DNA of 64,000 bases, taken from NCBI GenBank assembly GCA_019752595.1, contig JAIELV010000001.1:120486-184485 (forward strand). The letters run 5' to 3'. Position numbers and translations under genes: made by a program. The notes beneath the pieces were generated by a model. It ran no database searches. It saw only the letters and a list, made by a program, of their open reading frames with translations, and was not told the origin of the DNA. This document shows, piece by piece, positions 21,686-56,237 of the stretch (positions are counted from its first letter, which is position 1; each line of letters starts with the position of its first letter). Source of the DNA: Patescibacteria group bacterium (GTDB taxonomy: Bacteria > Patescibacteriota > Minisyncoccia > Phycocordibacterales > Phycocordibacteraceae).

Positions 21686-21692
21686 CCAGTTT

Positions 21693-21714
21693 GTGCTATA
21701 CTTAGTATAGCACT
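21693..21714. promoter_or_regulatory. Palindromic extended -10-like motif TGTGCTATACTTAGTATAGCAC (copy 1 of 3)
   Basis: Near-identical copies at 47894..47916 and 55467..55489; contains TGnTATACT. Confidence 0.5.
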
Positions 21715-21725
21715 TCGCTTTTGGT

Positions 21726-47892: not shown

Positions 47893-47893
47893 A

Positions 47894-47916
47894 TGTGCTA
47901 TACTTAGTATAGAACA
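47894..47916. promoter_or_regulatory. Palindromic extended -10-like motif (copy 2 of 3)
   Basis: tgtgctatacttagtatagaaca. Confidence 0.5.
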
Positions 47917-48110
47917 TGGGGTTGGAAAAGCGATTTAGTCCTGGAGAAAAAGTTACGATAGAAGGTCGCCCTGGTGTCTATGTAGTATCCAAATATGATA
48001 CTGATCCACTCAGGGTACCTCTTGTTCCTTTGAGGGGTGGCCCAGACGAGAGTGTACCCCGAAGTCTTGTGCAAAAGATGCCACAAGTGCCCCCGCAAGC
48101 CCACTCATAG
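47916..48110 (+). CDS. Small hypothetical protein
   Basis: 64 aa. Confidence 0.35.
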   Translation: MGLEKRFSPGEKVTIEGRPGVYVVSKYDTDPLRVPLVPLRGGPDESVPRSLVQKMPQVPPQAHS

Positions 48111-53657: not shown

Positions 53658-54527
53658 ATGGTACTTCTTGCGGTCCTCTACGGCGTCATTGCGATGTTTG
53701 CGGGCGGTATTTCAAACGCGCTCCTGAAAGGTGTTTCAGGTGGCCTTGGTGCTGTGCCAACCGTCATTGTGCGTGCAGGGGTTTCCGCGGTCACACTCTT
53801 TGTCGTCCTTCTTATTCTCCAGCCTCCACTTTCGTTTAACCTGGGGAGTTTTGTGGTAGCTATTTTAATTTCTATCCTCGGCTACTTCCCATTTCTCTTT
53901 TTTGTCAAAGCGCTTCGCATGGAGAAAGTAGGTATTGTCGCGCCAATAGCCTCGAGTTGGATTGTCGTTGCGTCCATTGTGGGTTTTGTGTTTTTTAATG
54001 AAACACTCTCTGCAGAAAAGCTATTTGTGCTTGTGGCGGTTATCGCGGGTGTCGTTTTAACCTCGGTTGATTTCAAAGCATGGGGCAGAGGACACGCGGT
54101 GTTCTCAAAAAACGCGATTATCTTTGCGCTCGCCGCTGCATTTTTGTGGGGTTTTGTGTTTCCTCTGTTTCAGCTACCATCGGCTGCTTTCGGGGCTCTG
54201 GTATTTGGGCTCATAATCGAAACAGTAGTTTTTCTGTGTGGAGTTGTACATGTATTGATTACAAAAACGCAGATGCCCCTTTTCTCTGTAGTAAAACCCC
54301 ACCTGAAGGCCCTCATAGGTGCAGGAGTTCTGACTGCGGTCTACACCCCTGTTGTTTCTCTCGGATACCTGACAGGGAACGTGAGTTTGGTTTCTGCGCT
54401 CTCGGGCTCAAGTATTGTGGTCGCGGTTTTTGTCGCATCATTTTTGTATAAAGAACGCCTGACGGTTTTACAGTACGCGGGCGGGGCTCTCATCTTGCTC
54501 GGCACGATATTTGTCTCCGTTTTCTAA
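53658..54527 (+). CDS. Polytopic membrane protein (DMT/EamA-like)
   Basis: 289 aa, ~10 TM in two similar halves. Confidence 0.4.
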   Translation: MVLLAVLYGVIAMFAGGISNALLKGVSGGLGAVPTVIVRAGVSAVTLFVVLLILQPPLSFNLGSFVVAILISILGYFPFLFFVKALRMEKVGIVAPIASSWIVVASIVGFVFFNETLSAEKLFVLVAVIAGVVLTSVDFKAWGRGHAVFSKNAIIFALAAAFLWGFVFPLFQLPSAAFGALVFGLIIETVVFLCGVVHVLITKTQMPLFSVVKPHLKALIGAGVLTAVYTPVVSLGYLTGNVSLVSALSGSSIVVAVFVASFLYKERLTVLQYAGGALILLGTIFVSVF

Positions 54528-54855
54528 ACTACAATGCACGACATTATTAAATGTCGTGCATTTAAACACGTCTGCCGTATTTGCCAATTAACCTGAGTAC
54601 GGCTACAGTGCACGGATGGAAGAAGAAGACCAACTAACGCATGTGATTCTTGATTCTCGAAACGTCACAAATCCCTCCCTGCACGGGGCATATCCTGGTG
54701 GTCCACTAGAGTATGTGTTTGATAGTGCTTGGAAAACACCCTTCTCTCGTCTGAATGTGGAGCAACGAGCTGCGGTTATTCCCGCTGACAGGAGAGCATG
54801 GCGCGCAATAAGTATTCCCGCTGACAAAAAAGCAAGAAGGACAGGTTTATAAAGC

Positions 54856-54925
54856 ATGAAAGTAGTAATGCTTATTGATCTAAAGAAAGTGGGTTCGCGG
54901 GGCACGATATTCGCGTCTATGCTAT
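54856..54925 (+). pseudogene. Truncated duplicate of the rplI 5' end
   Basis: atgaaagtagtaatgcttattgatctaaagaaagtgggttcgcggggcacg is ~85% identical to the true rplI start at 55529; runs into a stop after 23 codons. Confidence 0.6.
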
Positions 54926-54930
54926 AAGTC

Positions 54931-55461
54931 ATGCAACGTAGGGAACGGCAAGGAGTAGCTATTTCCGAAGATGAAATTCAGGCATACGCACCAGAGCCGT
55001 GGCGGGTTTCTCTCTACGAAAAACTAGCCATTGGAAAGCTGTGGAAGCCTGGATTTGGGAACTTTCGGTTAAACCTAAATGCACGCGCTCTTGAACGTAA
55101 TTATGCTGATCAAGCACTCCATCTCAGTGACCAACATTTTCAAACACTCTGGCTTCTTGCCCGAGCGCGCCTTACAGGAGCGCCAATTAATTCCTATGAG
55201 ATAACAAACTTTATATACGAAAGTCGTCCCGATAAAGACATAGATTTAGTTGATCGAATAGAAAACGCTGTTTCGGTAGAAATGTCTGCCCTTAGAGGTC
55301 TCTTAGGTGTGTTTAGCGGAGATACAGTTTTTGTGCAAAACGAAACAGGGATAGGGTATAAGCTCGTTCTTTCAGGAGAAGGACCAATTAAGAAGTATCG
55401 TGGCTCAAGTTCTGCTCGCAGTCATGCGCGGATAGTAAACTTTCCACATCGAAGACAATAG
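54931..55461 (+). CDS. Winged-helix (OmpR/PhoB trans_reg_C-like) DNA-binding protein without receiver domain
   Basis: LSDQHFQTLWLLARA...INSYEITNFIY...VFVQNETGIGYKL resembles the OmpR C-terminal wHTH. Confidence 0.5.
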   Translation: MQRRERQGVAISEDEIQAYAPEPWRVSLYEKLAIGKLWKPGFGNFRLNLNARALERNYADQALHLSDQHFQTLWLLARARLTGAPINSYEITNFIYESRPDKDIDLVDRIENAVSVEMSALRGLLGVFSGDTVFVQNETGIGYKLVLSGEGPIKKYRGSSSARSHARIVNFPHRRQ

Positions 55462-55466
55462 TAGGT

Positions 55467-55489
55467 GTGCTATACTTAGTATAGCACAC
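55467..55489. promoter_or_regulatory. Palindromic extended -10-like motif (copy 3 of 3) upstream of rplI
   Basis: tgtgctatacttagtatagcaca. Confidence 0.5.
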
Positions 55490-55528
55490 TGAGAGAGTGA
55501 AAGGCTGTTTTGGTATACTCTGAAAGAT

Positions 55529-55963
55529 ATGAAAGTAGTAATGCTTGTAGATTTGAAGAAAGTCGGCTCCCGCGGAACGGTGGTGGAGGTTGCGGACGGG
55601 TATGCGATGAATGTTCTTCTGCCACAGAAGAAAGCGGTAGTGGCGACACCAGAAAACCTAAAACGAGTTGAAAAAGATACGCTCGCGGCGAAAGGGAAGA
55701 AGGATATGGATGCAATTCTCGCACAGAAAGCCCTGGCGCAGATTAATGGAAAGACCATTACCGTTACAGCAAAGGCAAATCCTACAGGCGGACTTTTTGA
55801 ATCGATTAAAGAAAAGCAGATTAACGAAGCAATCGAAAAAGAATTTTCTATTTCTTTGCCCGAGTCGGCAATCAAACTAGATGAGCCAATAAAAAAAACT
55901 GGCGTACATCCAGTTACCATCTCACTTCATCAGGCAAAAGCCGTTATCTCGGTCTCGGTTTAG
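55529..55963 (+). CDS. rplI: 50S ribosomal protein L9
   Basis: MKVVMLVDLKKVGSRGTVVEVADGYAMNVLLPQKKA. Confidence 0.9.
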   Translation: MKVVMLVDLKKVGSRGTVVEVADGYAMNVLLPQKKAVVATPENLKRVEKDTLAAKGKKDMDAILAQKALAQINGKTITVTAKANPTGGLFESIKEKQINEAIEKEFSISLPESAIKLDEPIKKTGVHPVTISLHQAKAVISVSV

Positions 55964-55991
55964 CTAGTCTTTCTTCCCAAGGGGGTTTTTC

Positions 55992-56237
55992 TTATTGCCC
56001 TCGTACCATTGGATTCGCTGGTCGGCCTAAGTTAATTAAATTCTCTACTGAAACTCCCTTTTTTCCAAATATTGGGAAATTTACAAGTGTCACAGTCCCG
56101 TCAGGTTTGAAATGTGAAATAGACCACTCCGCCCCTTCATAAAAAACACCGTCAAACTGCCGAAAGGCGCGTATGCCATTCGCACGAACACCGCCGACCG
56201 CAAGAGCGGACTGGGAAAGGAGTTCTTTTTTCAACAT
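55992..56237 (-). CDS. Hypothetical protein downstream of rpmA
   Basis: 81 aa from internal Met; no domain. Confidence 0.3.
   Translation of the reverse strand: MLKKELLSQSALAVGGVRANGIRAFRQFDGVFYEGAEWSISHFKPDGTVTLVNFPIFGKKGVSVENLINLGRPANPMVRGQ

Follow-up and report, generated by a model that had tools for sequence, protein, structure and literature searches.

Previous reports have described how, during natural transformation in Streptococcus pneumoniae, Acinetobacter baylyi and Pseudomonas stutzeri, a linear DNA fragment can be anchored at one end by homology and joined illegitimately at the other, a process known as homology-facilitated illegitimate recombination (HFIR; PMC3240628). It has also been proposed to act at type VI secretion system (T6SS) and Rhs loci, in which the arrival of a new module displaces the previous one along with a stub of a flanking gene (PMC5361080). 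Natural competence has been shown in Saccharibacteria, which belong to the Patescibacteria (PMC10187176). Here we analyze a locus of an uncultivated Patescibacteria lineage in which the start of rplI, the gene for ribosomal protein L9, is present on both sides of a gene for a winged helix-turn-helix (wHTH) protein of the OmpR/PhoB type. It lies in a stretch of 64,000 nucleotides of the 831-kb contig JAIELV010000001.1 (assembly GCA_019752595.1), referred to below as the window, whose numbering is used throughout. The upstream copy of the rplI start forms most of a small open reading frame (ORF), the stub. This stub is rather likely to be a recombination scar, left by the joining of an "orf78" and a "wHTH" haplotype at a 6-base match, and not the footprint of an inserted regulator gene. 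The reading is carried by the anatomy of the locus, a single novel joint, stub-free relatives, natural adjacencies, the foreign allele in the stub and a cassette swap elsewhere, all of them read from sequence; the mechanism, the direction of transfer and any function we infer. The features on which the argument turns are these:

53658 to 54527, plus strand: gene of an EamA-family transporter, 289 aa (Pfam EamA, E 1e-19; 82-88% amino acid identity to the EamA proteins of relatives).
54501 to 54527, plus strand: first copy of the EamA tail, the last 27 nt of the gene (GGCACGATATTTGTCTCCGTTTTCTAA, ...GTIFVSVF-stop), from tail comparison.
54616 to 54852, plus strand: orf78, a small ORF of 78 codons with homologues upstream of rplI in distant relatives.
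54856 to 54927, plus strand: chimeric 23-codon stub ORF, in which rplI codons 1-17 continue in frame into the last 6 EamA codons and stop.
54856 to 54906, plus strand: copy of the rplI 5' end (51 nt), from repeat search and from codon and allele comparison.
54901 to 54906, plus strand: GGCACG, the 6-bp microhomology at the novel joint, from reading of the sequence.
54907 to 54927, plus strand: second copy of the EamA tail (ATATTCGCGTCTATGCTATAA, IFASML-stop), of the tail type that adjoins the wHTH gene in relatives.
54931 to 55461, plus strand: stand-alone OmpR/PhoB-type wHTH gene, 176 aa, type A (Pfam, family profile against PDB, NCBIfam).
55529 to 55963, plus strand: resident full-length rplI (ribosomal protein L9), 144 aa (Pfam Ribosomal_L9_N and Ribosomal_L9_C; 86% amino acid identity to the related loci L010 and L012).

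The two copies of the rplI start (54856-54906 and 55529-55579) are separated by 673 nt from start to start and are identical at 42 of 51 positions (82%), which confirms the duplication reported in the original prediction with slightly different figures (about 55 nt and 85%); over all placements in a 1.7-kb region, the chance expectation of such a repeat is about 2e-8. Homology begins at the ATG, the sequences 5' of both ATGs being unrelated, and the longest run common to both copies is of 18 identical bases. The 176-aa OmpR-C-type wHTH gene and a palindrome (55465-55489) do lie between the copies, as had been described. The stub, with the translation MKVVMLIDLKKVGSRGTIFASML followed by a stop, is indeed an ORF of 23 codons, but it is more than a truncated rplI: its last 21 nt are a second copy of the upstream EamA 3' end, so that it is a chimera, and both the EamA tail and the rplI start are duplicated. 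At the joint, rplI ...CGG GGC ACG / ATA TTC GCG... EamA, the parental sequences share no similarity beyond GGCACG, and the fusion is in frame because this hexamer encodes Gly-Thr both in rplI (codons 16-17) and in EamA (codons -8/-7). The hexamer is found again in the EamA gene (54501-54506), exactly 400 nt 5' of the joint copy, within GGCACGATATT, which stands at that same distance upstream of the stub's copy and is followed by a different tail, TGTCTCCGTTTTCTAA (...IFVSVF-stop); this variant has not been seen in wHTH-bearing relatives. In relatives, EamA ends in ...GGCACG ATATTCGCGAGTATGTTGTGA (L012, IFASML-stop), ...ATATTCGCATCTATACTATAG (L010, IFASIL-stop) or ...ATATTCGCGAGTATGGTGTAA (L001, IFASMV-stop, an ending shared with L013 and L014).

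For the comparison, 20 related loci (L001-L021, except the partial L009) and two contigs identical to the window were fetched; they were reached via the wHTH homologue, via L9 patterns in genome and metagenome collections and via contigs encoding the closest L9 proteins. The stub is absent from all 20 related loci. Six lineages (L001/2, L010/11, L012, L013, L014), whose L9 is 76-86% identical to that of the window, show the order S41 peptidase-EamA-wHTH-rplI, with a wHTH gene of 173-176 aa whose ATG follows the EamA stop by 3-6 nt. The gene is resident at this site in the six lineages, since it holds the same position there without a stub. It is absent in L003-8 and L015-21; EamA is followed by rplI within 3-66 nt in L005-7 and L015-18, and S41 directly by rplI in L003/4 and L019. 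Conservation of both stub and gene across the lineage, which had been named along with the original prediction as the result that would speak against it, was found for the gene and not for the stub. In L019 the S41-rplI spacer of 312 nt (positions 2469-2780 of that locus) shows no similarity to EamA, wHTH or orf78, and may be yet another filling of the EamA-rplI slot.

Homologues of orf78 were recovered by tblastn in the spacers of the fetched loci. L020/21 carry a 57-aa ORF after S41, 5 nt before rplI (46% identity over 54 aa, E 1e-10), and L008 carries a homologue between EamA and rplI (43% over 53 aa, BLASTP E 9e-8). In the window, the orf78 stop precedes the stub ATG by 3 nt (TAA AGC ATG), and the same stop-AGC-ATG layout links EamA to rplI in L016 (TAG AGC ATG). 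Because orf78 homologues stand upstream of rplI in two distant relatives, directly so in one, orf78-rplI is a natural adjacency, as is EamA-wHTH, and the passage from rplI codon 17 to the EamA tail is the sole novel joint in the window. Among the loci compared, only the window carries both modules. With respect to wHTH-bearing relatives, its extra DNA is not the wHTH gene, as had been assumed, but a 400-bp block seen in the window only, made up of the alternative EamA tail, a hairpin, orf78 and the rplI 5' piece.

The rplI part of the stub differs from resident rplI at 9 of 51 positions, and 8 of the 9 differences are silent (proportions of synonymous and non-synonymous differences, pS 0.65 and pN 0.026). 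Orthologous rplI genes of different lineages show a pS of 0.65-0.77; the copies differ as orthologues do and the EamA 3' end is duplicated too, so a fresh target duplication, as originally proposed, does not agree with these data. The stub differs from rplI of L001 and L014 at only 3 of 51 positions, one of them a third position (pS 0.08 against L001), and at 6, 7 and 10 positions from L012, L016 and L010, respectively. Likewise, GGCTCCCGCGG is common to resident rplI, L010 and L015, and GGTTCGCG to the stub, L001, L014 and L012. The two private changes of the stub are first-position and amino-acid-changing (V7I and V9L), as expected once constraint is lost. A relic of pS 0.65 age should be heavily mutated and this one is not, so the 51 nt that bear on the question indicate that the stub is probably a fairly young fragment of a different rplI allele, not a decayed resident copy.

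Exchange of a cassette at the same borders could be observed in the pair L001/L014. These loci share 98% DNA identity in EamA and 86% in rplI, and carry wHTH genes of types A and B, respectively (41% amino acid identity). Their alignment stays at around 99% until some 40 nt before the EamA stop, falls to about 50% across the wHTH gene and the downstream spacer, and returns to 97% from the rplI ATG onward. As the drop is confined to the interval between the EamA tail and the rplI start, the pair is a case of clean cassette replacement with borders at those two sequences, the same two that are fused in the stub of the window. The type A wHTH genes of the window and L001 differ by a pS of 0.48, against 0.68-0.76 for the flanking genes, and the distribution of wHTH types is incongruent with that of the flanking genes, a pattern that indicates swapping of the wHTH gene between lineages. 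A separate rearrangement was noticed at the 5' side of L001, where EamA lacks its first approximately 57 codons and is preceded by some 300 nt of unrelated DNA (L001 1-300) with a 100-codon ORF; the EamA gene of L014 is intact despite the 98% identity.

The following history would account for the scar. In this clade the slot between S41 peptidase/EamA and rplI can be occupied by a short spacer, by orf78, or by a wHTH gene that begins 3-6 nt behind the EamA stop. At GGCACG, a single illegitimate crossover would have joined rplI codon 17 of an EamA-orf78-rplI molecule to EamA codon -7 of an EamA-wHTH-rplI molecule; EamA and rplI would have remained complete, the 23-codon rplI::EamA stub would have arisen, and the EamA tail and rplI start would have been doubled. 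Since the two modules are entirely different and the rplI 5' copies fall into separate allele groups, the event most likely involved two different haplotypes; most simply, one of them would have been incoming DNA from a related lineage, anchored at one end by homologous recombination in a conserved flank and joined at the other at the microhomology, as in HFIR. Through its duplicated flanks, with runs of 11 identical bases between the EamA tails and 18 between the rplI starts, the locus might in principle resolve to either parental form.

Illegitimate joints of HFIR are reportedly found typically at 3-10 bp of microhomology (work of 2002-2003), and the joint described here is indeed placed at a short, G+C-rich microhomology of 6 bp between otherwise unrelated sequences. 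The locus also resembles HFIR in that its extra DNA adjoins a conserved gene, that EamA and rplI are available as a homologous anchor, and that competence has been shown in the same phylum-level group. It differs in that anchor and donor are deduced, the case being known from its sequence, and in that foreign and resident DNA would be versions of one locus, so that the outcome is like that of an unequal crossover, with both flanks duplicated. A second parallel is offered by the displaced-gene arrays of T6SS effector-immunity and Rhs loci of Vibrio cholerae (PMC5361080), where a variable module between conserved flanks is usually exchanged by a clean homologous swap and occasionally a module is added, with the old module and a flanking-gene stub left behind. 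The modules of the window are, in contrast, a regulator-like gene and a small ORF instead of toxin-immunity pairs (PADLOC gave no meaningful match at the locus), and we see a single two-module case and no arrays.

Several observations weigh against this history. Both directions of transfer fit, the orf78 block into a wHTH genome or the wHTH cassette into an orf78-rplI genome, and the second, mirror-image version is compatible with the data and close to the idea of the original prediction. No species-level relative with either parental arrangement was found, and the lineages from which the parents are deduced show 14-40% divergence in L9. The homologous anchor that HFIR requires is not visible in sliding-window identity along EamA and rplI, which shows no clear switch of affinity, synonymous sites being saturated. 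At codon 9, stub and resident rplI agree in encoding Leu (CTA and TTG), and the 14 relatives all encode Val; this could hint at an origin of the stub in its own lineage, even though the two codons differ at two positions. Finally, the rplI part of the stub is 6% diverged from L001/L014 and other segments of the window 22-25%; a one-donor history would not predict this closeness, which rests on 51 nt.

The shared Leu9, unlike all relatives, would also be in favor of a tandem duplication within the genome, in which slippage or unequal sister exchange between the two GGCACG hexamers doubled the 673 bp reaching from EamA tail to rplI start, with subsequent replacement of the first wHTH copy by the orf78 module or alteration of the copies by gene conversion. 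A joint of rplI 5' end and EamA tail at the shared hexamer is exactly the product of such a duplication, and the L001/L014 pair indicates that cassette replacement by flanking homology does occur at the locus. We nevertheless consider this unlikely, given that two events are needed instead of one, that the orf78 block keeps no trace of wHTH or spacer sequence and that the right-hand crossover of the replacement would have to fall within 51 nt; moreover, the stub is nearer to the rplI of other lineages than to the resident copy, and has only two to three private changes where a neutral relic of that age should be decayed. Much less probable still is the original reading, a mobile or recently inserted wHTH gene that duplicated about 55 bp of its target at the rplI start. 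The direct repeats around the gene, its patchy distribution (see above), its fast evolution and the near absence of detectable relatives speak for it, and the first of these is also what the locus shares with target-site duplications of transposons and insertion sequences (IS). Against it, the gene is found at this very position in six lineages that lack the repeat, and the copies, 51 nt long and 82% identical, differ silently, fall into different allele groups and include one that ends in EamA sequence. Neither transposase or integrase genes (ORF list, Pfam) nor terminal inverted repeats were detected between the repeats or at their ends, the window holds no other copies of the repeat-flanked segment, a scan of viral contigs for relatives of orf78 and of the wHTH gene found none, and composition is not anomalous. 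What stands of that reading is a recombination that duplicated the rplI start; its newcomer gene is a resident in stub-free lineages.

Two further explanations concern the stub itself. It might be a maintained, translated upstream ORF that lends the wHTH gene the rplI initiation region and couples it to orf78: it is an intact, in-frame ORF, 3 nt separate its stop from the wHTH ATG and another 3 nt its ATG from the orf78 stop, 16 of its 17 rplI codons encode the residue of the resident gene, and the wHTH gene of relatives, which lacks an evident Shine-Dalgarno sequence, invariably begins 3-6 nt downstream of the EamA stop. On the other hand, its presence in one lineage only provides no evidence of selection, its sole private changes are non-synonymous, as under relaxed constraint, its predicted RNA structure is not better than that of shuffled sequences (z -0.65) and no Rfam match was obtained, and the coupling may be a by-product of the scar; a maintained ORF is for these reasons distinctly improbable. 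A chimera of assembly or amplification, by which the joint would not exist in the organism, is conceivable in a metagenome-assembled genome, since related strains with other cassettes could co-occur. It has next to no credibility here: the 6 bp shared at the joint are too short for a mis-join by a k-mer assembler, the rplI 5' copies share no more than 18 identical bases in a row, and Logan assemblies of two other runs (SRR15085116 and SRR15085127) are 100% identical to window positions 54420-55697 and 54919-56230. The contig covering 54420-55697, from another run and another assembler, crosses the joint and reproduces the whole succession of EamA end, orf78, stub, wHTH and rplI start.

With a recombination scar as the preferred explanation, the stub would probably have no function of its own. 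A structured RNA or known cis-regulatory RNA in the stub was ruled out on the basis of its folding score and of the Rfam search, which gave no match at E<=1 in 54300-56100. The stub does keep the ancestral stop-3 nt-ATG arrangement before the wHTH gene. Given the 3-6-nt spacing and the lack of an evident Shine-Dalgarno sequence in the six lineages, translation of wHTH was probably coupled to that of EamA ancestrally. In the window, the wHTH gene is preceded by the hairpin, a promoter-like site, orf78 and the stub, the last two each 3 nt from the next ORF, and its translation may at present be linked to that of orf78 and the stub, no longer to that of EamA, the stub acting as an incidental coupling ORF.

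The wHTH protein (hypothetical protein K2P56_00970 in the source annotation) consists of a conserved N-terminal extension of about 45 aa (EDEIxAYxPExWR), the wHTH at approximately residues 48-146 and a basic C-terminal tail. Its match to Pfam Trans_reg_C (PF00486) spans profile positions 2-77 of 77 but, at 17.8 bits (E 0.0034), stays below the cut-off of 26.2; four of six family members match, the type C homologue with 29.7 bits, above the cut-off. More distant small relatives score 36-51 bits. A profile built from six wHTH homologues retrieved from PDB the effector domains of ArlR, CovR and others (E 0.002-0.003), with residues 48-145 of the query aligned to 11-98 of a chain of 100, that is, almost the whole effector domain. 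NCBIfam models of OmpR/RpaB are matched only in their C-terminal third (approximately 135-235 of the full-length models) and Pfam gave no Response_reg match, in agreement with the receiver domain having been reported as missing; the approximately 45 residues before the wHTH are too short for one, and the protein would accordingly not qualify as a two-component response regulator. A single-sequence AlphaFold2 model was discarded (pLDDT 33.6). A word-indexed search had returned the protein itself and one partial relative, but its status as an orphan was overturned by the contexts of L9 homologues and by a phmmer scan of 1.84 billion representative proteins (28 matches at E<=1e-3, 4 at E<=1e-10), mostly stand-alone Trans_reg_C proteins of 120-160 aa, one of them from a Parcubacteria genome. 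These relatives and the profile alignment connect the protein to the OmpR/PhoB effector domains without receiver; the score below the Pfam cut-off, and an N-terminal extension and basic tail that match no known family, set it apart from them.

Three types of wHTH protein could be distinguished: type A (window and L001, 77% amino acid identity within the type), type B (L010 and L014, 72%) and type C (L012 and L013, 72%). Identity between types is 35-47%, with length and motifs kept. Within types the ratio of non-synonymous to synonymous substitution rates (dN/dS) is 0.12-0.19 (0.19 for the window against L001), which points to purifying selection on the gene, weaker than on its flanks (0.02-0.08). 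In L001 (1002-1530) and L002 (653-1181), the type A gene has a 1-nt deletion with respect to the window and is split into ORFs of 53 and 126 codons; as the deletion was present on five contigs from more than one sample, it is probably real and would correspond to a pseudogene or a shortened product.

The remaining features of the region are the following:

54533 to 54562, plus strand: perfect hairpin with 13-bp arms, directly 3' of the EamA stop (repeat search; RNA fold -18.1 kcal/mol, z -4.6).
54581 to 54609, plus strand: promoter-like site TTGCCA-17-TACAGT (consensus scan; weak evidence).
55465 to 55489, no strand assigned: perfect palindrome GTGTGCTATACT-t-AGTATAGCACAC with 12-bp arms (repeat search; recurs in the window).
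55511 to 55519, plus strand: TGgTATACT, extended -10-like box whose end is separated from the rplI ATG by 9 nt (alignments of upstream regions; position kept in relatives; putative function).

The hairpin, which is not followed by a T-run, is a possible terminator or boundary of the orf78 module, and the promoter-like site, if used, would start transcription at about the orf78 ATG; promoter-like sites were no commoner in the scan for promoters and terminators than in shuffled sequences. orf78 (K2P56_00965 in the source annotation) matched only itself in a word-indexed protein search and had no match in Pfam, NCBIfam or PADLOC. It contains a direct repeat of 22 nt (54777-54798 and 54813-54834, 86% identical, 36 nt apart), which encodes the repeated peptide IPADRRAW / IPADKKAR. 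A derivation of the orf78 block from a first, since decayed copy of wHTH and spacer was ruled out, blastn and tblastx giving no similarity.

Three copies of the palindrome TGTGCTATACT-t-AGTATAGCACA are present in the window (21691-21715, 47893-47917 and 55465-55489; none expected), and every one closely follows a stop codon and precedes the next ATG of that strand by 0-40 nt. The palindrome contains an extended -10-like TGnTATACT on either strand and would form an RNA hairpin of -16.9 kcal/mol (z -3.6). It was also found in L003 (approximately 2552-2578) and upstream of rplI in L010, L012, L014, L017 and L018, and its arms change symmetrically in relatives (GTGCCATAC/GTATGGCAC in L017, GTGCAATAC/GTATTGCAC in L012). 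Upstream of rplI it is kept in relatives both with and without the wHTH gene, and its presence in genomes lacking that gene indicates that it is not specific to it; the palindrome is a candidate promoter, terminator or operator. Comparison of positions 55511-55528 with L001, L003, L005, L010 and L012 revealed, in all relatives, a -10-like hexamer (TATACT, TATATT or similar) with its end 8-10 nt from the rplI ATG. This spacing, with no Shine-Dalgarno sequence in between, suggests that the rplI mRNA is nearly leaderless.

The stub itself is a neutral scar of a known kind, part of ordinary genome evolution, which changes little, and in annotation it should be called neither a gene nor a truncated rplI. 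Its value is that it records cleanly, and to the base, an illegitimate recombination by which two haplotypes were joined at a 6-bp microhomology in an uncultivated Patescibacteria lineage. More tentatively, and with considerable doubt, the EamA-rplI slot could be a dedicated exchange site at which small modules are traded via recombination in the conserved flanks, the window representing a two-module intermediate able to resolve to either parent through its short duplicated flanks. The modules traded would then comprise the orf78 family and an orphan OmpR-type protein with a private N-terminal domain, present as three deeply diverged alleles. Such trading, in organisms with very few regulators, would imply that a regulator-like protein is under diversifying or frequency-dependent selection, for instance in interactions with a host or a phage. 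Module exchange and a fast-diverging, receiver-less OmpR-type gene are of moderate interest. The latter, which is patchily distributed in three allelic types and keeps its position beside rplI, merits study, since little is known of regulation in these organisms, and, taken along with the L001/L014 swap, the scar shows that these reduced genomes exchange small modules through recombination in conserved flanking genes.

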